From Promethearchaeota archaeon (GTDB lineage Archaea > Asgardarchaeota > Hermodarchaeia > Hermodarchaeales > Hermodarchaeaceae): a stretch of 32,000 nt of DNA. Location: NCBI GenBank assembly GCA_048938295.1, contig JBHLMI010000020.1, positions 15,786-47,785 of the forward strand, given 5' to 3'. Position numbers and translations under genes: made by a program. Positions within the stretch are counted from its first letter, which is position 1, and the number at the start of each line of letters is the position of its first letter. Below are positions 10,735 through 21,732 of this stretch, one piece after another. The notes beneath the pieces were generated by a model that did not search any database, had not been told where the DNA came from, and saw only the letters and a list, made by a program, of their open reading frames with translations.

Positions 10735-10869
10735 GATACCCTGCACCTAGTAATCATGGATATTAACTGGGTTAGATAATGATTTCTCAGCAAGAATTTT
10801 CTATTCCTCCTAAGTTACGAGTTTTTATAAGTCTGCATTTTCGTTAATGGGACTAAGAGCGTGATCTAT

Positions 10870-11346
10870 ATGTCCCGAGATGAAATTCAACAGAAACTCC
10901 ACTGTCGACGTTGTGGTCGACCGCGCATTGTTAATCGAGTTAGCAAACCCAATCCGAATACAATCAAACTCTACATGATCTGCCCAGTGCACACTGCTGA
11001 GGTCGTCTATTCAATGCCAGAAAACCGCTACGAGGAGGCCAGCGACCTAATCCGAGAACACGTCCTTCTATGCAAGAAGTGTGGACAACCCGTTGATATC
11101 GTTGGCCAACGAGCAGGCAGTCTTTCAACAAATCTCAGCATCCAGTGCCCCGAACACGGCAGCGGTGAACGAATGATCAACAACTCGCTCCTTGACCCAA
11201 TCCTCGCAGCAGTCCCAGCGAAACCAGCACCTTATGAAGTAAAGGCAACTGCTGGTGCTACAACAAAATTCTGTGCTAGCTGTGGTTCACCAGTCCCAAC
11301 AGCTGAAGCCCGATTTTGTCACCACTGTGGCGCTTCACTTGAGTAG
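10870..11346 (+). CDS. Zinc-finger protein with two CxxC...CPxH repeats and a C-terminal double zinc ribbon
   Basis: CRRC..CPVH, CKKC..CPEH, then FCASCG..FCHHCG. TTTTTATAAG promoter near 10822. Confidence 0.8.
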   Translation: MSRDEIQQKLHCRRCGRPRIVNRVSKPNPNTIKLYMICPVHTAEVVYSMPENRYEEASDLIREHVLLCKKCGQPVDIVGQRAGSLSTNLSIQCPEHGSGERMINNSLLDPILAAVPAKPAPYEVKATAGATTKFCASCGSPVPTAEARFCHHCGASLE

Positions 11347-12319: not shown

Positions 12320-13309
12320 GTGGCAACACAGCCAATTGAAACCATGACAGCTCTTAAGTGCCAATCCTGCAACGCCCCCCTCGCAGTTTCTCCCGATGAT
12401 GTCGTCATCACCTGTGGTTACTGTGGTTTTACAGTTACCGTTGAGGGAGAGAAGGTAGAGAATCACTTTACCTTGGAGCCCACACTGACGGCGGATGAAA
12501 TCCGCGATATGGTTACTGAGTGGGTGGGTCGAGGTGGTAAAGCCCGAGTGACAGAATCACATCTGCGATTTGTTCCCTTTTGGGTGGAATCGATGCATGC
12601 GTATACCTCATATCAGGGGTATAAGGAGCACCGCGAAACCGAATACTACACTGACTCACAAGGGAAACGGCGTTCACGAACTAAAATCGAATATGAACCC
12701 ATCCAGGGCCAATTCGACGAGAATCGTTCAGTGAATGTCTTGTGTCGACGAGGCGCTACCTTCTACAGTCTTGGCGAATTGGATAAGGCACTAAACGTGA
12801 CTAAGAGGGGAATCCAACCTTTTGATTACAATGCAATCACAGCCGTGGAAGAAAAGCCCCTCTTTTTGAATAGCGAACTCACCGACGATGATGCCTACGA
12901 GATTGCTGAAACATTTATTTCCCAGGATCATCGCAGCCGCGCTGATTCCCGGGCCACAAAGATCTGGGACTGCAACAGCCGGATCAACAAGACCGGCTCA
13001 TACCTATTGCATGTCCCGCATTGGCTTGTCCGCTACCAATTTGGTACTGAAACGTATCGTGTTGGTATCGACGGACATACGAAGAAAATCCTGAAAGGTG
13101 AAGTACCCATTTCTGCAAGCTATCGGGCTACTATGTTCGTGTTAAGCCTCATAGGAGTGCTCATTGGAACCATCGGCACCTACTTTGCTGCGCTACTACT
13201 CGCACCAGACTATTCGTTCTTATCCTTGGTGCTAGTCGTTATTGGACTAGCAATTGGTGTCCTAGCGACCCGGAATAGCTTCAAGATACATGCAGAAAAA
13301 CGAGGGTGA
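12320..13309 (+). CDS. Zinc-ribbon membrane protein (YdjG-like), paralog 1
   Basis: CQSC..CGYCG ribbon, FVPFW and HVPHW motifs, two C-terminal TM helices. AGGAGG SD before GTG. Confidence 0.75.
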   Translation: MATQPIETMTALKCQSCNAPLAVSPDDVVITCGYCGFTVTVEGEKVENHFTLEPTLTADEIRDMVTEWVGRGGKARVTESHLRFVPFWVESMHAYTSYQGYKEHRETEYYTDSQGKRRSRTKIEYEPIQGQFDENRSVNVLCRRGATFYSLGELDKALNVTKRGIQPFDYNAITAVEEKPLFLNSELTDDDAYEIAETFISQDHRSRADSRATKIWDCNSRINKTGSYLLHVPHWLVRYQFGTETYRVGIDGHTKKILKGEVPISASYRATMFVLSLIGVLIGTIGTYFAALLLAPDYSFLSLVLVVIGLAIGVLATRNSFKIHAEKRG

Positions 13310-13332
13310 CTGAGGAAAAACGGTGAAAAGAA

Positions 13333-14322
13333 ATGGCAAAACATTGCATAAATTGTGGCGCACAGCTTAACATCCATCCAACGGATGCGATTATCACCTG
13401 TAACTATTGTGGTACTTCATTCACCCCTGAAGGGACAAGAATGAAGGAGCATTTTGCACTGGGAGTGAATTACACTCAAAGTGAGGCGCTTGATACTCTC
13501 AAAGCGTACCTGGTGAAGGTTCCTGGCGTCTCAGATGATTTAGCCTTACAAATCCAATTGCAGGATCTCTCAATGACCTACTACCCCTATTGGACTGTAA
13601 CTGTTCAAGGGGATGTTGCCTACAAGGGAATTGACCGAAAAGCCTCATTCCGGGGCCAATCTGGTGGACGTTATTCAAGTATCCATTGGGAATGGGTTGC
13701 TGAATCCGGACATCAAGAACAGACACGTCAAATCCGACTATACGCTGGACCCAAAACTCGTCCTGAAATAGTCAACTACCCGATTGCCACTCGGTCACGA
13801 CGGTACTTCAATTTCGAAGAAGTCCAGCAATATACAGGGAACGTGCTGTTTTCAAAGGTCTCAGAAGAAGATGCACGACAACAGGCAATCGCTGCTACAC
13901 GTAATATGATCTTTGCAAGGATAAAGCGAGAAACGGAAAAAATCGATGATACCCGGGAAAACTTTCAGGTCACCGACCAAGCCTACATCCACGTGCCCAT
14001 CTATCATGTCAAATTCTCAGTTGGTGGAAACAAAAGCTATGAAGCAGCCCTTGATGCATCGAACGGTCGAGTTATTTATACCCAGATTCCCACCACCGCA
14101 GGATTCAAAGTGAAGACCATCGGCATGTCCCTTATATGGTTCCTTCTCACCATTGCAGGTGCCATCCTGACGTATTTAGGTTATTCTGAATTTTCACTCC
14201 TGGGACTCACTCCAGCATATCTCTTCTACGCCGGTCTTGGACTGACGATCATTCCGTTGCTATTAGCCTTGATGACGATATTTTATGCCTCACGAAAAAC
14301 CGCAGCAGAACGAGCGCAATAG
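13333..14322 (+). CDS. Zinc-ribbon membrane protein (YdjG-like), paralog 2
   Basis: CINC..CNYCG ribbon, YYPYW and HVPIY motifs, two C-terminal TM helices. GGTGA SD, 23 nt after paralog 1. Confidence 0.75.
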   Translation: MAKHCINCGAQLNIHPTDAIITCNYCGTSFTPEGTRMKEHFALGVNYTQSEALDTLKAYLVKVPGVSDDLALQIQLQDLSMTYYPYWTVTVQGDVAYKGIDRKASFRGQSGGRYSSIHWEWVAESGHQEQTRQIRLYAGPKTRPEIVNYPIATRSRRYFNFEEVQQYTGNVLFSKVSEEDARQQAIAATRNMIFARIKRETEKIDDTRENFQVTDQAYIHVPIYHVKFSVGGNKSYEAALDASNGRVIYTQIPTTAGFKVKTIGMSLIWFLLTIAGAILTYLGYSEFSLLGLTPAYLFYAGLGLTIIPLLLALMTIFYASRKTAAERAQ

Positions 14323-14420
14323 AAACCTGCCACATATGTCTACAACTGGTCACACACAGTCGATGTAGCGAATACCATCAATACTTGGGTATCAATTATG
14401 CTTCTCGTAGAAATCAGCTA

Positions 14421-14449
14421 GGTTGGCGAGATTTTATAAGGTCTCAACC
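14421..14449 (+). promoter_or_regulatory. TATA box within an imperfect inverted repeat
   Basis: GGTTG-GC-GAGA TTTTATAAGG TCTC-AACC, located 35-63 nt before the TTG at 14484. Confidence 0.4.
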
Positions 14450-14483
14450 CAATGCCTAGATAGCGACCATCGAGGTGATCTCC

Positions 14484-15029
14484 TTGGGAGATAAAGATAA
14501 ACCATCCATTATGGAAAAAGTCGATGACGAACGCACTCTAACACAGAAAATCATGAAATTAATTCCCGGATGGCGGGGATACCGGATCAAGGAAGAACGG
14601 CGGAATGCCGATCGAATTCTTCGTGACCAAATCGTCAACCGTCTACGAGAATCCACAGATAAAATTCAAGATATTCGTTCTGCTGTCGTGGAAAACGATA
14701 TTGAAGAGGCCTACCGAATGGTTGACTCAGTTATGAGTCGAACGGAGAAGCTCATCAGCCAAATCGAACATGCGGATTATGGATACCGTCCCTTCTTTGA
14801 CGCCATCAAAATCAAAGAAGACGATTTAGAGAATATGCTCCGCTACGACAGTTGGTTTGTAGAGAACGTCCAAACCTTCGATCAACGCTGTGACGATGTC
14901 CTGACGTTGATTGAAGATGATGCCGATGAAGCAATAGGTCACATCAAGGATCTTCGAAAAATGGTTTCGAAAATGAACCTCCAGTGGAAGGAACGAGAAC
15001 AAGTCATCATGGGTATTGAAGTCGTTTAA
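14484..15029 (+). CDS. Conserved all-helical hypothetical protein (IPGWRGY...EERR.AD...HADYGY.PFFD)
   Basis: Acidic and helical. GAGGTGA SD at 14472-14478 places the start at TTG 14484. Confidence 0.8.
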   Translation: MGDKDKPSIMEKVDDERTLTQKIMKLIPGWRGYRIKEERRNADRILRDQIVNRLRESTDKIQDIRSAVVENDIEEAYRMVDSVMSRTEKLISQIEHADYGYRPFFDAIKIKEDDLENMLRYDSWFVENVQTFDQRCDDVLTLIEDDADEAIGHIKDLRKMVSKMNLQWKEREQVIMGIEVV

Positions 15030-15068
15030 CTAACTGGTTGCGACTACTGCCCCTGAAGTGTGTCCTTC

Positions 15069-15093
15069 CATTCTTTTTCTCTTTTTATTTCTT
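15069..15093 (+). terminator. Archaeal pyrimidine/oligo-T terminator
   Basis: CATTCTTTTTCTCTTTTTATTTCTT, about 40 nt after the 15029 stop. Confidence 0.5.
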
Positions 15094-15326
15094 CAAGTCA
15101 ATAAAAGCCGTCGAGGATTTTTATGGATTCAAAGTGATCGACCATCTTGCCTTCCAATTCCCTTTTCGAGAGACTCGTAGAACGACTCTAAAGGGAGTTG
15201 TAGTTGAATACTTATTTCATAATAAAAATCAATGAATCTTATTTTTCTAAACTGACTTGAATTTTAATGAGTGTTTAAAAGGAAGAAGACTTGACACTAT
15301 TAACAAAGTTTGACAGGTATAACAGG

Positions 15327-16595
15327 ATGCCCTTCACCACAACAATTGATGAAAACTTGGCTCGTGGACGTAAAGCCATCAAAAGGGCTTCAATTGTTGT
15401 TTCACTCTTAATCATTACATGGTTTCTCATAGCACACCTTTCGGGAAGCCTTGGCCTTTTAGCAAAGGGAGTCGACTCGATCTCAGATCTGATTGCCATT
15501 ATCACAGTGTTTCTTGGATTATGGCTCGCTCAACGAGATCCCAACCAAAAATATCCCTATGGTTATTTCAAGGCAGAATCATTAGCAGCCCTGATTGTCG
15601 CAGTCTTTATCTTTATAACGGGTTTAGGTGTGCTTTGGCAAGCAATCCAACGAATATTCATTCCAATAGAACTACGCTTCATCGATCTGGCATTAGTGGT
15701 TTCAATTGCATCAATTCCAATCATCTTTGTCATGTCCTGGTATCTGAAAAAAATTGGTCGAGAAACTAGGAGTAATGCAGTATATAATAAGGGTCAAGAA
15801 TTTCAAATGGATATTTTGGCCTCGATTGCTGTTATCTTAGGATTGGTCTTTGCTTTAGTTGGATTACCATGGGTTGAATCCATTGTGGGATTTATAATTG
15901 GTCTGTTGATTCTTAGAAGTAGTTTCCAATTGGCATATGAATCAATACTCGTCCTAATGGATGCTGGGCAAGATCTCGAAAAGATAAAGGCTATTGAACA
16001 ACTCGCTGTACCTGTTCTTGGTGTCCTTGGTGTTCATGACATAAAGTTACGAAGAGCAGGACCAATTTATTTTGGAGAAATGCACCTTGAAGTTGCTGGT
16101 AAAACAACGGTCCTCCAATCACATCGCCTCACAGAAGAAATCGAAGCACGAGTCAAAGAAGTGTACCCTGAAGTTCTTTCAGTTCTCGTTCATGTGGAGC
16201 CAGTAACACCTATCACCTTCCGCGTCGCATTTCCCGTAGACTCTCAGAATGCCACTCCCCAATCCAAGCCTAGCTCGGTATTTGGATTTGTTGATTTTTT
16301 CCTGATAATGGATATTCAACAGGAACAAATCTCACTCTGGGAGATTGTACCAAACCCTGCTTCACAACAGGAGAAAGAACGTGGGAAAGACACAGCGAAA
16401 CTACTCATCGATGCAAAGGTAGAGGTTGTCTTTGCGGAGAGAATGGGCGAAACCCCCCTAAGCATTCTCCGAAACCACTTGATCCGCGTTTATAAACAGG
16501 AGTCCAAGGCTAGCTGCCAAGAGAACCTCAAATACTTCTTTGCTGACCAACTGGATTATCTTACACCCAAAGAAACGACAGACCACCACAAGTAG
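15327..16595 (+). CDS. Cation diffusion facilitator fused to a NifB/NifX-type domain
   Basis: YPYGYFKAESLA, six TM helices, GVHDIKLRRAG, HLEV and LVHVEP, followed by VAFPV...FG..FF...NP...AKLLID..VEVV. Confidence 0.9.
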   Translation: MPFTTTIDENLARGRKAIKRASIVVSLLIITWFLIAHLSGSLGLLAKGVDSISDLIAIITVFLGLWLAQRDPNQKYPYGYFKAESLAALIVAVFIFITGLGVLWQAIQRIFIPIELRFIDLALVVSIASIPIIFVMSWYLKKIGRETRSNAVYNKGQEFQMDILASIAVILGLVFALVGLPWVESIVGFIIGLLILRSSFQLAYESILVLMDAGQDLEKIKAIEQLAVPVLGVLGVHDIKLRRAGPIYFGEMHLEVAGKTTVLQSHRLTEEIEARVKEVYPEVLSVLVHVEPVTPITFRVAFPVDSQNATPQSKPSSVFGFVDFFLIMDIQQEQISLWEIVPNPASQQEKERGKDTAKLLIDAKVEVVFAERMGETPLSILRNHLIRVYKQESKASCQENLKYFFADQLDYLTPKETTDHHK

Positions 16596-16729
16596 ATCCA
16601 AGTCTATGTTATTCCCAAAACAAAAATCGTTCAAAAAAGCAAAGTCGTAAAGTTGAAAAGGCTGAGCACGAATTGCAACACAGACCTTCTGTACCTTCCA
16701 AACTTGGATTTCCAGAGGGAGAAATCAAC

Positions 16730-17725
16730 ATGCCCGAAATAATCGAATGGAAAAACATGCGAAAGAACGACATCGTCTATCGATGGCCCAATGACCTCGT
16801 GAAATGGGGCAGCCAATGCCTCGTTCGCGAAAACCAAGCTGCCGTCTTCTACCGCGACGGCAAAGCCCTCGACGTAATGGGCGTTGGGCGCCACACCCTC
16901 ACCACCGCTAATGTTCCGATTCTCACAGGAATTCTACGCCGTATTGCAGGTTTCGACAAATCCCCCTTCAACGCTGAAGTCATCTTCCTAAACACGACCA
17001 AATTCCAAGGCAAATTCGGTGGCAAAGGCCAAACCCGTGATTTAGCTCCCCTCCAGTTCCATGGAGAATTTTGGTTCGAAGTGGAGGATGCACAAATCTT
17101 TGTTAACGAAGTCGTCGCTGGAGAAAACTACACCACTCAAGATGTTACCGACTTCATTCGGTCCAAATTCGTCGAACTCGCCATGGATGAACTCGCTGGC
17201 TATACCCTACAAAACGCCATGACCCGCCTTGACGAAACCAGCATGAAAACCAAAACCATCCTCTCCGACAAGTTCGAAGAATACGGCCTTAAACTTCTAG
17301 ACATGGCCTTCGCTGGAATGGACACTTCACCCGAATACCGCGAGCGCCTCTTCTTTGCCGTCCAAGGCGTCTCCGGCAACCAAGTTCTCACCGCTGAAAC
17401 CATGCGCCGCAGCGCCGAAGCCCTCGGCCAAGGTGGCGGCGGAGGAGCTGCAGCTGGTGCTGGCATCGTCCTCATCCCACAACTCGCTGAAATGATGCGC
17501 CAATCCCAGAAGCCCCAAGAACAAGGCGTCACTCATGTCGCCTGCCCCTTCTGCGGCGCTGCAATGCCGCTGAAAGACGGTAAGCCTCCGAAATTCTGTT
17601 CAGAATGCGGAAAACAACTTCGTCAGGAAGTTGATGCACGGGTGAAAGCCAAGAAGTTTTGCCCAGAATGCGGGGCGCCTGCTTCGAAAGGGAAGTTTTG
17701 CAGTGAGTGTGGTGCTGAGCTTTAA
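16730..17725 (+). CDS. SPFH/Band-7 protein (YdjI / 'virion core protein' type) with C-terminal zinc ribbons
   Basis: IVYRWP, GSQCLVRENQAAVFYRDGKALD, GRHTLTTANVPIL, PFNAEVIF, a GGGGAAAGAG linker, then CPFC, FCSECG, FCPECG and FCSECG. Confidence 0.88.
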   Translation: MPEIIEWKNMRKNDIVYRWPNDLVKWGSQCLVRENQAAVFYRDGKALDVMGVGRHTLTTANVPILTGILRRIAGFDKSPFNAEVIFLNTTKFQGKFGGKGQTRDLAPLQFHGEFWFEVEDAQIFVNEVVAGENYTTQDVTDFIRSKFVELAMDELAGYTLQNAMTRLDETSMKTKTILSDKFEEYGLKLLDMAFAGMDTSPEYRERLFFAVQGVSGNQVLTAETMRRSAEALGQGGGGGAAAGAGIVLIPQLAEMMRQSQKPQEQGVTHVACPFCGAAMPLKDGKPPKFCSECGKQLRQEVDARVKAKKFCPECGAPASKGKFCSECGAEL

Positions 17726-17768: not shown

Positions 17769-17915
17769 GTAGGGGTCCTAGGGGACCTGTTCTAGTTTTT
17801 ATACGGGATTGTCAATCGTGCTTGTCTAGGAGGACAGTTGTTCTTTTCATTTTGCTTATATACACTCGTTGAGTAAGGATTGAGGCTAGCGAACTGTGTG
17901 TTGTGTGGTTCTAGG

Positions 17916-19310
17916 TTGAAAGGGTATGCTAAATGGCTAACATTTGCCCTGTTCGGGTTTTGCCTATTATTCTTCATATCTCCAGTTCAGGTGGGTGCGC
18001 AACCACCAGAAAGCTGGGTGCCTGGTAGTGAACGCCACTTCTTTGGCCATACCTTCGCTGAGGATTCGTGGACTAATGATTCCATAGTTTTTGAATCAGT
18101 AGAGAACGCTTCGGTCCAATTCATCGCCAGTTACCTGAACTATAAGGAAGGACCACGTTCATTTCAGGCCATGCTCCTAGCACTAGGAGTGATTGAGAAC
18201 GAAAACGGTACACAATCGACGCTTCCTTACCAGCTCTTCGGGTTGCATTTCACGACGAAGGGAGGACGGGATATCTTCGCCGGTTCGTTGTTAGCTTTCT
18301 TATTTGGATTCAATGACACTGATCACAACGGAATTCCAAGCCCTGGCGAGAACCGGTTTTTCATCATCCCGTATGGATATAATGAGGGGAACGCGACGGA
18401 GCCATTAACGGTCGAAGCGATTCCTGTGACGAAGTTGGGAGATGACCACTATCAGTTTGGGATTCGGTATCGGAACTTGTATGGTCGGTTGGTGTCAGCG
18501 AATAGTGAGGCTGATTTTTTGTGGACATTGATTGTTCCGTTCTTTGAAATCTCATTTAGCGAATTGACAGTAGTTTACGATGTCCAAGTAGATGTCGAGA
18601 GTGGAGAAATCACCACTGAAACCTATTATACGATAGGTCAGGTTACCGAATTTCGGTTTCTTGGTATTCCAGTGCCCAACTTCCACGAGTCACTGAAGGA
18701 TGTGGGAATCGGTGTTGCCCATTTGGGCATCATCTTGACAACTAGATATTATGCACGAACCGTTCCCTCAACGCCGATAAGTGGAACGGATCACACCCTT
18801 GTCAATATCTCGACGGACGCGGCGGGACGAAATCGAGCTTTCGCTGTGACCACTTGGGGAACCTACGATGTTCTCAATGAAAGTACACAGCCCATTTCAC
18901 TAGTTCAAAGTGGCCTTCCCGCGTACAGTTGGATTCTCACCCCACAGCCAATTGACTTGGTCCTTTTACTCTGGCAGTTACCGATTTCAGCTAACATTTT
19001 CAGCATTTTTGCCTATGCCATGAGCGCGTACCTTCAAGACAATTTCGATGGGCCGCGAGACGTATATAATAACGCAGATCTAATCTTCAATGGCGCCGCT
19101 TTCTGGTATGGGACCACGTTTCCTAAATCGCAGGGGTATCGTGTTGAGTATGATCCCGTTTATACCGCGTTTTCAAATATCGGACAAGCCACGAATGTTC
19201 TGGGAGTGGTCCTCATCGGAACAGTGGTATTAGTCGCACTCATTATTGTGGTTCTACGCGTAGTGCGATCTAATGGCCGTAAGAAGCTCGCAGCTGAAAT
19301 GGAAGCGTAA
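17916..19310 (+). CDS. Secreted, C-terminally membrane-anchored surface glycoprotein, paralog A
   Basis: Signal peptide, 7 N-x-S/T sequons, a DTDHNG motif, YDP before the C-terminal TM. Full-length paralog of 20338-21732. Start TTG 17916 is inferred. Confidence 0.78.
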   Translation: MKGYAKWLTFALFGFCLLFFISPVQVGAQPPESWVPGSERHFFGHTFAEDSWTNDSIVFESVENASVQFIASYLNYKEGPRSFQAMLLALGVIENENGTQSTLPYQLFGLHFTTKGGRDIFAGSLLAFLFGFNDTDHNGIPSPGENRFFIIPYGYNEGNATEPLTVEAIPVTKLGDDHYQFGIRYRNLYGRLVSANSEADFLWTLIVPFFEISFSELTVVYDVQVDVESGEITTETYYTIGQVTEFRFLGIPVPNFHESLKDVGIGVAHLGIILTTRYYARTVPSTPISGTDHTLVNISTDAAGRNRAFAVTTWGTYDVLNESTQPISLVQSGLPAYSWILTPQPIDLVLLLWQLPISANIFSIFAYAMSAYLQDNFDGPRDVYNNADLIFNGAAFWYGTTFPKSQGYRVEYDPVYTAFSNIGQATNVLGVVLIGTVVLVALIIVVLRVVRSNGRKKLAAEMEA

Positions 19311-19435
19311 GGTGTTGACGATATGTATAAAGGCGCAATTTCCTCAGTGAGTATAGAAGGTGGCTACTCCAACTTTTACGGAGAGCAGTCTATGGACTTT
19401 AAGTTATGACAAGATACTGGGGATGAAACCGACCA

Positions 19436-20182
19436 ATGACGGATTTGGACGAATTTCTTACTGCGATTGGCCATCCGTTACGTCGTCAAATCCTTGAAAC
19501 TGTCTACGAAACCCCAGGTATCTCCTATTCACAAATCCTTGCGCGAATGAATATTTCCAGCGGTAAACTTAATTTCCATTTACAGCGGTTGGAACCGTTT
19601 CTTGCCCAAGTTAATGGTGAATACCAGATTTCTAATGAAGGTTTGAAGCTGTATCGGACATGGAAAATGCTGGAAGGTCGCCTCAGCGGAACCCAAATCA
19701 CAGGCACGGCTACTCCTGGACTTTTTGTAGGTCGTCGGACGTTGGCATTTCTTATCGACGTCATATTAATCCTGTCTGTGCTATTCATTGCAGCAGATTT
19801 TTCGTCAGCATTCACATTAGTTCCAGCTTGGTGGCTCAGTGGATTTCCCCTGCCCCTTTTCGTCACAAGGATTGTTGACACGTTTCTAATCTACCCCGAT
19901 TTGACAGTTGTCCTGATCCGTGCCTTCATTGTGGCGATTTTGTGGATGTATTTCACCTTACTAGAGGGCTATCGGGGACAATCACTTGGTAAGATGATAC
20001 TGGGGATTCGCATCGTAGATGTGAGTGGTGCCCGTGTCGCTCAACAACCCGCGGCAATCCGGGCTCTCACTAAGGTGCTCATCTTACCTTTCGACATTCT
20101 GGTAGGACTAATTAAATCACGTAAGGCAGGATTTCTCCGGTTCTTCGGGCAATATACTCGGAGCTGGGTTGTTCGGAACTAA
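19436..20182 (+). CDS. ArsR-like winged-helix domain fused to an RDD-family membrane domain
   Basis: AIGHPLRRQIL...ISYSQIL..MNISSGKLNFHL..L (wHTH), then RRTLAFLID and YFTLLEG.RGQSLGKMILGIRIV (RDD). Confidence 0.85.
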   Translation: MTDLDEFLTAIGHPLRRQILETVYETPGISYSQILARMNISSGKLNFHLQRLEPFLAQVNGEYQISNEGLKLYRTWKMLEGRLSGTQITGTATPGLFVGRRTLAFLIDVILILSVLFIAADFSSAFTLVPAWWLSGFPLPLFVTRIVDTFLIYPDLTVVLIRAFIVAILWMYFTLLEGYRGQSLGKMILGIRIVDVSGARVAQQPAAIRALTKVLILPFDILVGLIKSRKAGFLRFFGQYTRSWVVRN

Positions 20183-20216
20183 CCAACCCGTTCTACTCGG
20201 AAAATCTTAGTAAACC

Positions 20217-20240
20217 TTAGTTTTCTAGACTGAAAACTAA
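20217..20240. promoter_or_regulatory. Perfect 9-6-9 palindrome, candidate operator
   Basis: TTAGTTTTC-TAGACT-GAAAACTAA, next to the AAACTTATC / CTTTAAAT promoter-like elements upstream of paralog B. Confidence 0.55.
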
Positions 20241-20337
20241 ACTTATCAGCTTCTTTAAATTCGTCATTTGAGAGGGAGAGCTAACGAGCAAACACTTGCC
20301 GATAACGGTAAAGATGTGCTTAAAATTGATAAGCAAA

Positions 20338-21732
20338 ATGAAAACCATTCCAATAGTGGCTCTAGCGCTTGCATTGACAGTTGTCTTGGCTCCAATGACT
20401 ACTACCGCCCTCCCACCTGAGACATATGTTCCAGGCAGTGAAGCAGCGATCTTTGATCACACATTCGCTGAGCATTTCTGGAGTAGCACGAAGACATTCA
20501 CAAACGAGACATCAGGTGACAGTATCGAGATCATCATGCACAGCGTCAATTACCAAGGTGCTGGTGAATTCCAAGCGGCCCTGTTAGCTCTGGGCGATGT
20601 GTATATTGCGGAAAACGATACCAGTGCGACTTTACCCTATCAAATCTTCGGCATGCACTTCACAACTCCTGAAGGACATGAAATGTTTACTGGGGCAATT
20701 TTTGCCTTCATGTTTGCCTTTAACGACACAAATGGCAACAATGTTCATAATCCCGGAGAAGATCAATGGTTTGTCATTCCATATGGATATGATAATCCAG
20801 AAAGCAATCACACTGGCACTGATCCCACCGTTGAATCCATTGATATGACTAATCCCAATCCTGGTGAATACCGTTTTGGCGTTAGCTACAAGAATCTCTA
20901 CGCGCGACTAGTTTCCACAGAAAATTGGTTAGCCTTCTGGCTAACCTTAGCAGTACCTTTCGTTGAAGTCCAAATTAGTGAACTGACATTCGAATATGTC
21001 ATCAACGTAGATGAATCGACTGGTGAAATTACCGCTGAAACTTTCTACACCATTGGGCAGGTCCAATCCTTGCATTTCCTCGGTCAGACACTCGATGTTC
21101 CTGACCAAGAAATTCACAACGCCCTAGCCAATGTTACTGTAGGTGTCGCACACCTGATAACAGCATGGGGTTCAACTTATCACGTCCACAACGGAAATCA
21201 ACTCGATCCTCAACCTGCGGCCAATTGGATTTACGCAAACATCACTACCGATGCCCTTGGACGAGACCGCGCCTTCGCAGTTGGTGTCCGAGGAACCTAT
21301 GATCTCCAAAACGAAACAACTGAACCTTACCCAACGCTCAACGCAAGTCTTCCAGCATATAGTTGGATCTTGTCGCCTGCGCTCTTTTCACTTGAAACGT
21401 TGCTTGTGCTCTGGCAATTACCACTCTCAGCAGACTTTCTAGCTTTGTGGGCGTACGCTATCAGTCCAACGATGCAATCGATGTACACTGGACCTCGCGC
21501 GCTCTACCAACACGCCTATGAAAACTTTAACAAGATTGCCTTCTGGTACGCAATCACCTTCCCCAAGTTTGGCGGATATCGTATTGTCCACGATCCCGTG
21601 TATACAGCCTACTCCAATGTTGGACAGGTTGCACCTCCAGGTATCCCCGGATTCCCATGGGAAGCCATCCTGATTGGCGTCGTCGTCTGCGTGGTTGCTG
21701 TCTTCCTCGTTCGCCGCCGTAAGAAAGCGTAA
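20338..21732 (+). CDS. Secreted surface glycoprotein, paralog B, with a PGF/Loki-CTERM-like sorting tail
   Basis: Signal peptide, 8 sequons, DTNGN motif, HDP, then GIPGFPWEAILIG-TM-RRRKKA. Confidence 0.82.
   Translation: MKTIPIVALALALTVVLAPMTTTALPPETYVPGSEAAIFDHTFAEHFWSSTKTFTNETSGDSIEIIMHSVNYQGAGEFQAALLALGDVYIAENDTSATLPYQIFGMHFTTPEGHEMFTGAIFAFMFAFNDTNGNNVHNPGEDQWFVIPYGYDNPESNHTGTDPTVESIDMTNPNPGEYRFGVSYKNLYARLVSTENWLAFWLTLAVPFVEVQISELTFEYVINVDESTGEITAETFYTIGQVQSLHFLGQTLDVPDQEIHNALANVTVGVAHLITAWGSTYHVHNGNQLDPQPAANWIYANITTDALGRDRAFAVGVRGTYDLQNETTEPYPTLNASLPAYSWILSPALFSLETLLVLWQLPLSADFLALWAYAISPTMQSMYTGPRALYQHAYENFNKIAFWYAITFPKFGGYRIVHDPVYTAYSNVGQVAPPGIPGFPWEAILIGVVVCVVAVFLVRRRKKA

Follow-up and report, generated by a model that had tools for sequence, protein, structure and literature searches.

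SPFH scaffold proteins, such as stomatin, prohibitin, and flotillin, as well as HflK/C, organise membranes in all domains of life. In the Stomatin–NfeD and HflK/C–FtsH systems, the SPFH gene is tightly coupled to a dedicated partner, and the protein forms a membrane-seated oligomer. Work on the soluble Band_7_1/YdjI branch has, to our knowledge, been confined to Bacillus subtilis, in which this branch connects PspA with the membrane. Here, we analyse a locus with a member of this branch in a 32,000-nucleotide stretch of DNA (the window; contig JBHLMI010000020.1) from an Asgard archaeon. The locus, at positions 12320–17725 of the window, encodes two paralogous zinc-ribbon membrane proteins (Y1 and Y2), a soluble helical protein (H), and an SPFH protein (S). 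It is rather likely an archaeal SamG/SamI (YdjG/YdjI)-like system, with membrane proteins of the zinc-ribbon type that keep a cytoplasmic SPFH scaffold on the inner membrane face, and with H as a new subunit.

The closest described system is the sigma-W operon pspA-ydjGHI of B. subtilis, also named pspA-samGHI (PMC8581546, PMC13713150, PMC11237479). YdjG consists of two zinc ribbons, a YpeB-related domain, and a transmembrane (TM) segment (PMC11237479). YdjI has no TM segment and needs YdjG and YdjH for its membrane localisation (PMC8581546). In archaea, the "Meth_adaptin" ESCRT-type loci encode an SPFH protein with coiled-coil and zinc-ribbon parts, for which an ancient connection of SPFH to ESCRT-III/PspA has been discussed (Makarova et al. 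2024, PMC11188069). A cage structure of the HflK/C type is cited in the same work as Ma et al. 2022 (PMC11188069). The YdjG–YdjI link is already known from Bacillus, and an SPFH–ESCRT link has been discussed for archaea (PMC11188069). In the literature searched, neither the H family nor the archaeal Y-Y-H-S module was found to be described.

The four proteins of the locus

The open reading frame (ORF) listing places five co-directional genes on the + strand within the locus. Y1 (12320–13309) and Y2 (13333–14322), each of 329 residues, are followed by H (14484–15029), by a gene for a CDF cation-efflux transporter of 434 residues (15291–16595), and by S (16730–17725). A preliminary description of the window had placed Y1, Y2, H, and S at these positions, and all four are present, but it had overlooked the CDF gene between H and S. 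Because of this insertion, the four genes are not contiguous here. The nearest H loci belong to Hermodarchaeota metagenome-assembled genomes (MAGs), with up to 94% protein identity. The host assembly is 2.5 Mb in size and 91.6% complete, and the DNA runs containing this stretch are sediment metagenomes.

Y2 begins 23 nucleotides past Y1, and the two proteins are 23% identical over 325 columns (BLASTP E 4e-24). Each has one zinc ribbon, an N-terminal CxxC-x14-CxxC, and its residues C5, C8, C23, and C26 are invariant in both Y families in an alignment of several genomes (A1). The ribbon is followed by two α/β (PepSY/YpeB-like) units, which bear the P[FY]W and HVP motifs, and by a C-terminal two-helix TM hairpin. 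In alignment A1, residues P85 and W87 of the P[FY]W motif and residues H220 and P222 of the HVP motif are invariant across both families. In a hydropathy scan, Y1 and Y2 each show two hydrophobic helices at the C-terminus. The whole soluble part of both proteins is predicted to face the cytoplasm because of the zinc ribbon and the positive-inside rule.

The AlphaFold2 (AF2) model of Y2 has a predicted local distance difference test score (pLDDT) of 85. When the model is compared with 550,129 Swiss-Prot models by Foldseek, a single match is significant, that to YdjG of B. subtilis (O34434; E 2.5e-16, probability 1.0, TM-score 0.50, 277 residues aligned); the next match has an E of 0.03. The alignment begins at residue 54 of YdjG. 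Foldseek finds no significant match to Y2 in the PDB, and no solved structure there matches the whole protein. The VIA-align list for Y2 consists mostly of helical hairpins that match the TM hairpin. The YpeB row alone reaches the soluble domain, where residues 44–253 of Y2 match the C-terminal domain of YpeB (5boi) with Z 7.7. A Pfam PepSY/YpeB match covers residues 175–249, under the cut-off (E 0.0033). The domain make-up of the Y proteins matches the published description of YdjG (PMC11237479). By predicted fold and architecture, Y1 and Y2 are YdjG-like.

The Y family profile reaches 2984 clusters among 1.84e9 representatives, 708 of them at E 1e-10 or better. The clusters that were looked up have named members from Promethearchaeum syntrophicum, Thorarchaeota, Lentisphaerota, and Bacilli, and the Bacilli proteins reached by the profile are encoded beside Band_7_1 genes (P0257).

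To place the two paralogs, we use a maximum likelihood tree of 34 Y proteins from 17 loci. The loci come from Hermod, Loki, Thor-type (f6), and f4, f13, and f25 genomes, and from Thermoproteota-labelled MAGs, including Brockarchaeota. All downstream Y copies fall on one side of a single branch with a support of 100/99, and the upstream/downstream label needs one change on the tree. Y1 of the window groups with the upstream orthologues from other Asgard and Thermoproteota-labelled loci (100/99). Therefore, the Y duplication is older than the divergence of the sampled lineages, and the gene order has been kept. An old duplication with a kept order would be expected of two non-interchangeable subunits. 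The heteromeric YdjG pair of the preliminary description thus gains indirect backing from the ancient duplication and the fixed order, and the heteromer itself we infer.

S matches Band_7_1 (PF13421) with 87.2 bits against a cut-off of 24 (E 1.6e-24), and B. subtilis also matches PF13421 in the control set. DZR (E 8e-07) and Zn_Ribbon_1 are above their cut-offs as well. Behind its SPFH domain, S continues with a helical region, then with a conserved hydrophobic stretch rich in Gly/Ala, and lastly with two double zinc ribbons. The four CxxC pairs (C291/294, C309/312, C330/333, and C343/346) are invariant or nearly so in the alignment of archaeal and bacterial orthologues (A4). The orthologues open with MPEIIEW, which places the most likely start of S at the ATG at 16730. 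The hydropathy scan finds no TM segment in S, which resembles YdjI in this respect, and no relative by sequence is found among solved structures at E 0.01. The host genome contains a second, weak Band_7_1-type match (G000:C14:5044–5325; 27 bits), limited to the C-terminal part of the model, in a 326-residue ORF, which is probably another SPFH subfamily.

The start codon of H is most likely the TTG at 14484, which is preceded by a Shine–Dalgarno-like site (GAGGTGAT) and gives a protein of 181 residues. The orthologues of H also have 181 residues. H is acidic (40 D+E vs 31 K+R) and has no hydrophobic TM helix in the hydropathy scan. The AF2 model (pLDDT 76) is all-helical, with four helices (residues 32–70, 74–95, 112–145, and 147–175). 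Two motifs are invariant in archaea and bacteria (alignments A2, A3, and A5). One, PG..GY..E.RR..D..R, lies near the N-terminus, and the other, ADYGY..FFD..KI, lies in the loop joining helices 2 and 3. Both sit in low-confidence or disordered regions of the monomer model, which hints that they are partner-binding segments.

H aligns over its full length and collinearly with NCBIfam NF047596, the LIMLP_15305 family of Leptospira, to which no function is attached (residues 13–178 of H to 8–173 of the model, E 6.6e-11). The score is 42.4 bits (41.7 in a second scan), far under the cut-off of 210. Therefore, H is a distant relative of this family and not a member. The AFDB clusters matched by H contain uncharacterised proteins and a few named ones (DUF47, PhoU, DUF2383, the N-terminal part of DUF4178, and a zinc-ribbon fusion), which suggest a common helical-bundle shape only. 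H is a member of a large family without a name, whose genes usually lie next to Band_7_1 SPFH genes, on their upstream side, also in bacteria.

These results agree with the preliminary description in most of what it said about the proteins. It had described tandem 329-residue paralogs with a CxxC-CxxC ribbon, P[FY]W and HVP motifs, and two C-terminal TM helices, and the alignment and the hydropathy scan confirm them. Its identification of the paralogs as YdjG is in line with the Swiss-Prot fold match, the PepSY/YpeB-like domain, the ribbon, and the TM hairpin. The YdjI-like SPFH protein with a Gly/Ala linker and four CxxC pairs, the all-helical acidic protein, and the probable Asgard host were also recognised correctly.

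In six relatives from the Asgard phylum, the H gene is split by an insert of 27–31 nucleotides with stops or a frameshift; the H gene of the window is uninterrupted. The carriers belong to families f18 (G038 and G028) and f7 (G076, G017, G056, and G082). The inserts are located at L013:4690–4720 (−), L104:262–292 (+), L015:6714–6740 (−), L018:4157–4185 (−), L105:287–314 (+), and L106:558–585 (−), and interrupt the codons for the invariant PG..GY motif. In four genomes that share a genus with G038 and G028 (L103, L107, L108, and L109), the gene is uninterrupted and has the exact sequence that is left after deletion of the insert. Five of the six inserts fold into an exon–exon outer helix, a short central helix, a 5′ bulge of 2–3 nucleotides, a longer 3′ bulge, and an inner helix, the last with one compensatory A-U to G-C change. 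The central helix has 3–5 bp in the minimum-free-energy folds and reads by eye as a 4-bp GGYU/GGCY helix; the canonical 3-nucleotide bulges are likewise a reading by eye and not fold output. The fold of the sixth insert (L104) does not surpass that of shuffled sequence (z −0.94). If cut in both bulges, behind the second bulge nucleotide, the H gene regains its reading frame. The inserts are thus candidates for tRNA-type introns of bulge–helix–bulge geometry in an mRNA.

Like the Bacillus operon, the locus encodes a zinc-ribbon, YpeB/PepSY-like TM protein together with a TM-less Band_7_1 SPFH protein with a C-terminal ribbon. Unlike in Bacillus, neither PspA (PspA_IM30, PF04012) nor the TPM-domain protein YdjH (PF04536) has a match in the 91.6%-complete host genome, and a second YdjG paralog and H are present instead. 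Bacillus has a single YdjG with two ribbons, whereas the two anciently diverged paralogs here have one ribbon and two TM helices each. H is an additional conserved helical subunit, and NF047596 is unmatched in the B. subtilis control. The gene order also differs, and here it is broken by an unrelated CDF gene.

The other described systems resemble the locus less closely. The Meth_adaptin loci have in common with it, by description, an archaeal SPFH protein that includes coiled-coil and zinc-ribbon parts. They carry Vps4/ESCRT and adaptin-appendage genes, whereas no ESCRT gene is nearby here and the partners are YdjG-like proteins and H. As in Stomatin–NfeD and HflK/C–FtsH, the SPFH scaffold gene is tightly coupled to one partner gene, in this case that of H. 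However, the SPFH proteins of those systems own a TM or hairpin anchor and have NfeD or a protease as partner, whereas S and the helical H are both soluble, and anchoring would be provided by separate proteins.

Gene linkage in relatives

We searched 151 Asgard-phylum genomes for H, Y, and Band_7_1. In addition, the H alignment was scanned against one genome per prokaryotic species, which gave 80 loci; these were re-annotated with our own profiles, and their group labels are taken from the MAG titles. Among the Asgard genomes, H is found in 68, Y in 79 (nearly always as a tandem pair), and Band_7_1 in 102. H, Y, and a strong S match occur together in nine families (f1, f2, f4, f6, f7, f13, f18, f25, and f26), and at least 12 others have neither H nor Y nor a strong Band_7_1 match.

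Close relatives keep the order Y1-Y2-H-(gap)-S. This alone proves little, because the whole region is collinear there, with AOR, Fe-ADH, SCP2, phosphoesterase, a PALP enzyme, a zinc-finger protein, and a methyltransferase upstream and paralogous secreted proteins and an RDD regulator downstream throughout the Hermod clade. In more distant genomes, the order changes from Y-Y-H-x-S to H-S-x-Y-Y in 12 Thermoproteota-labelled loci (Brockarchaeota, Nitrososphaerota, and other labels), to Y-H-S in one Bathyarchaeia-labelled locus, and to H-S in Bacillota and other bacteria. The closed genome of P. syntrophicum has S-Y-Y, adjacent to each other in an unrelated neighbourhood, and no H is seen there within 6 kb of them. 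In Asgard families f13 and f25, S is beside Y-Y on the opposite strand. In a Bacilli MAG, a Band_7_1 gene is directly followed by a Y homologue, and no PspA is called in the 13-kb locus. The genes thus co-occur in rearranged orders across Asgard archaea, Thermoproteota-labelled MAGs, and bacteria. Therefore, lack of co-occurrence in other genomes, which the preliminary description had named as grounds for giving up its proposal, does not apply.

In 29 of the 33 loci outside the Hermod and Thor clades, H immediately precedes S (gap −8 to +21 nucleotides), often overlapping the S start. This arrangement is found in 20 of 23 Thermoproteota-labelled loci, in all five Jord/Freya/f7 loci, in the single Thermococci-labelled locus, and in three of the four bacterial loci (Bacillota, Vulcanimicrobiota, and Planctomycetia). 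In the fourth (L083), an S domain also directly follows H. A 601-residue ORF in this Planctomycetia locus resembles an H–S fusion and is rejected as an artefact of a long open frame, H being in another frame. In the Hermod and Thor-type clades, H and S are on the same strand, 0.3–4.6 kb apart. The other neighbours of the bacterial and Thermoproteota-labelled H-S loci are mutually unrelated (sugar transferase, CheW, DUF5693, and dehydrogenases), and none is PspA. Of these genes, H and S are paired most tightly, with Y-Y as a frequent, looser partner.

The gene between H and S in the window encodes Cation_efflux (2.5e-41) and ZT_dimer (9.5e-19) domains and a C-terminal Nitro_FeMo-Co domain (PF02579, 5.6e-13) of the dinitrogenase FeMo-cofactor-binding type. 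In relatives L005 and L007/L008, the H-S gap is 220–260 nucleotides with no gene called. In the Hermod clade, the interval varies from 0.3 to 2.5 kb, and reaches ~5 kb in L009, where it contains tRNA_edit, phosphoesterase, and SNF-transporter genes. The CDF gene is a lineage-specific insertion and not a conserved part of the module.

Two further types of gene are observed at related loci. A protein of ~108–120 residues with 3–4 TM helices is encoded between S and Y-Y or directly after S in Thermoproteota-labelled modules (Nitrososphaerota, Bathyarchaeia, and unlabelled MAGs; L045:7505–7867, L050:6695–7021, and L078:6473–6811). It overlaps the Y start, has no counterpart in the window, and may be a further lineage-specific membrane subunit. 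In family f15 (G041:C4:353332–355538, G058:C57:87802–90005, G020:C16, and G031:C69), a 387-residue ORF with a weak H-like region (E ~2e-4) adjoins a 530-residue ORF with a partial Band_7_1 match (E ~1e-11), which suggests a larger, remote version of H-S.

Upstream of the module, at 10861–11346 (+), is a gene for a 161-residue zinc-finger protein, the terminal double zinc ribbon of which resembles the tail of S (phmmer E 4e-4). Its position is kept in the Hermod relatives, and no such gene is seen beside the module in other lineages. Downstream, at 17880–21732 (+), paralogous proteins of 476 and 478 residues are encoded on both sides of a winged helix-turn-helix (wHTH)–RDD membrane regulator. 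The first of them has no Pfam match (the Pfam scan covered the first copy only). In relatives, ORFs of the same size without a Pfam match flank the same wHTH-RDD regulator downstream of S, a likeness by size and position only. A search of Y1, Y2, H, and S against PADLOC finds no match to a defence system except one chance-level zinc-ribbon match.

Proposed assembly and rival explanations

Starting from the homologies, architectures, linkage, and age of the Y duplication observed above, we propose the following assembly, in which the subunit contacts and the physiological role draw on gene context and on Bacillus genetics. Y1 and Y2 would form a hetero-oligomeric membrane receptor, anchored by the C-terminal TM hairpins, with the ribbon and the PepSY-like domains in the cytoplasm. 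S would assemble on this receptor as an SPFH-type oligomer and would thereby be tethered to the inner face of the membrane. H would bind S stoichiometrically through its two invariant, poorly ordered motifs and may either regulate assembly or serve the scaffold as its adaptor/effector arm. By analogy with SamGHI, the likely role of the complex would be membrane maintenance or organisation at the cytoplasmic face.

Several observations weigh against this proposal. By two-hybrid, the protein that directly anchors YdjI in Bacillus is YdjH, not YdjG (PMC8581546), and the host genome has no YdjH/TPM gene. H and S are parted by a transporter gene in the host genome and by 0.9–4.6 kb in Thor-type genomes. 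Y and H-S are ~1 Mb apart in G038, a closed genome, and ~0.8 Mb apart in G013, and none of the four bacterial H-S loci has Y within its 5-kb flanks. Therefore, Y is not an obligatory neighbour of H-S. The related genomes are non-independent samples in the linkage counts. In favour of a link between H and S, a 472-residue metagenome protein (P0261) joins residues 5–139 of H to Band_7_1 and DZR, as a single case in a 5.8-billion-protein collection. It lacks the last H helix and is encoded on one 5-kb contig. H and S may truly be fused in it, or the protein may be an artefact, either of assembly or of a frameshift that merged overlapping H and S genes. Because it is a single sequence on a short contig, we give it little weight.

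The genes of the window are also probably not transcribed as a single Y-H-S unit. Read from the sequence, a possible archaeal TATA box (TTTTATAA, 14432–14439, + strand) is located ~45 nucleotides upstream of the H start, and a T-rich tract with two T5 runs (15071–15093, + strand), a possible archaeal terminator, follows the H stop. Because of these two features and the CDF insertion, H and S would have separate promoters, a further point against a joint assembly. Contigs of a small-share metatranscriptome library span parts of Y1, H, and S. They come from a relative that is 90–99% identical, and are therefore a weak hint and no proof of transcription.

One rival explanation takes H-S as a self-contained two-protein unit with another membrane or client partner (a protease, a transporter, or lipids via the Gly/Ala-rich segment), Y1-Y2 being independent and merely a frequent neighbour. 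The loci without Y nearby, which comprise all four bacterial ones and many archaeal ones, the distances of up to 1 Mb in closed genomes, and a Lentisphaerota Y homologue that stands alone are in accordance with it, as are the different partners of other SPFH families, for example NfeD and FtsH. On the other hand, Y-Y is found beside S or H in no fewer than four gene orders, in two phyla of archaea, the phyletic profiles of Y, H, and S coincide at the family level, and the membrane localisation of YdjI in Bacillus needs YdjG. We consider a self-contained H-S unit unlikely. An explanation by conserved synteny of a slowly rearranging region, without a common function, would account for the Hermod clade, in which the whole region is collinear. 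It is already contradicted by distant loci: in Lokiarchaeia, Thor-type, Jord/Freya, and Thermoproteota-labelled MAGs and in bacteria, the Y, H, and S families occur linked in different orders and with unrelated genes around them, and the starts and stops of H and S overlap there. Synteny as the sole cause is therefore hardly credible.

Another rival concerns H itself. The preliminary description called the module PspA-less and considered H a possible local replacement of PspA. H might be a functional or very remote evolutionary counterpart of PspA/ESCRT-III, that is, a membrane-binding, polymerising effector that is recruited by the SPFH scaffold where PspA is missing. H is a soluble helical protein of ~180 residues, and its gene clusters with those for SPFH and YdjG-like proteins, just as pspA clusters with ydjGHI in Bacillus. 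PspA is not found in the host genome and is above the Pfam cut-off in none of the 151 sampled Asgard genomes; the module is thus PspA-less, but as a trait of the sampled phylum and not of the locus. NF047596, the closest NCBIfam model to H, has no match in 14 control genomes, which include B. subtilis; in these two cases, H and PspA thus seem to complement each other. However, neither PspA_IM30 nor Snf7 is listed for H in Pfam at E up to 0.1, and a search of all PDB sequences with the H profile (A3) finds no PspA, Vipp1, or ESCRT-III up to E 10. Foldseek gives nothing significant for H in the PDB. By Foldseek and VIA-align, the matches are generic helical bundles only, and the best Z of 10.9 is below the value of ~13 reached by chance for helical models. 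As predicted, at pLDDT 76 and with the motif regions disordered, H is a compact four-helix bundle and has no long α1–α2 hairpin. Moreover, the host genome has two genuine, tandem Snf7 genes on a different contig from the module. The replacement of PspA by H thus finds no similarity of sequence or predicted fold in its favour, and H appears instead as a conserved SPFH partner; a PspA-like H is quite improbable. H was also compared with PspAA (Ravi et al.), which is ruled out because it combines three helices with a sheet of four strands.

We retain the proposal of a membrane-tethered SPFH scaffold with H as a new subunit. A bolder version is unlikely: H, S, Y1, and Y2 would form an ancient four-subunit membrane complex older than the Asgard/Thermoproteota split, with H as the effector arm in a PspA-like membrane-protecting or remodelling role. 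If it is true, H would be an unrecognised non-ESCRT-III membrane-maintenance protein that is widespread in archaea and present in several bacterial phyla.

Implications for the Sam system and archaeal membranes

The pairing of YdjG with YdjI is old, and it is widespread among archaea, those prokaryotes most closely related to eukaryotes included. Its archaeal form is without PspA and YdjH, and the unnamed helical family of H is the most constant partner of this SPFH branch. The locus offers three testable candidates: the binding of H to S, the Y1–Y2 heteromer, and the recruitment of S to the membrane by Y1–Y2. These bear on how membranes are maintained in PspA-less archaea, and on what the core of the Sam system was before PspA joined it in Bacillus.

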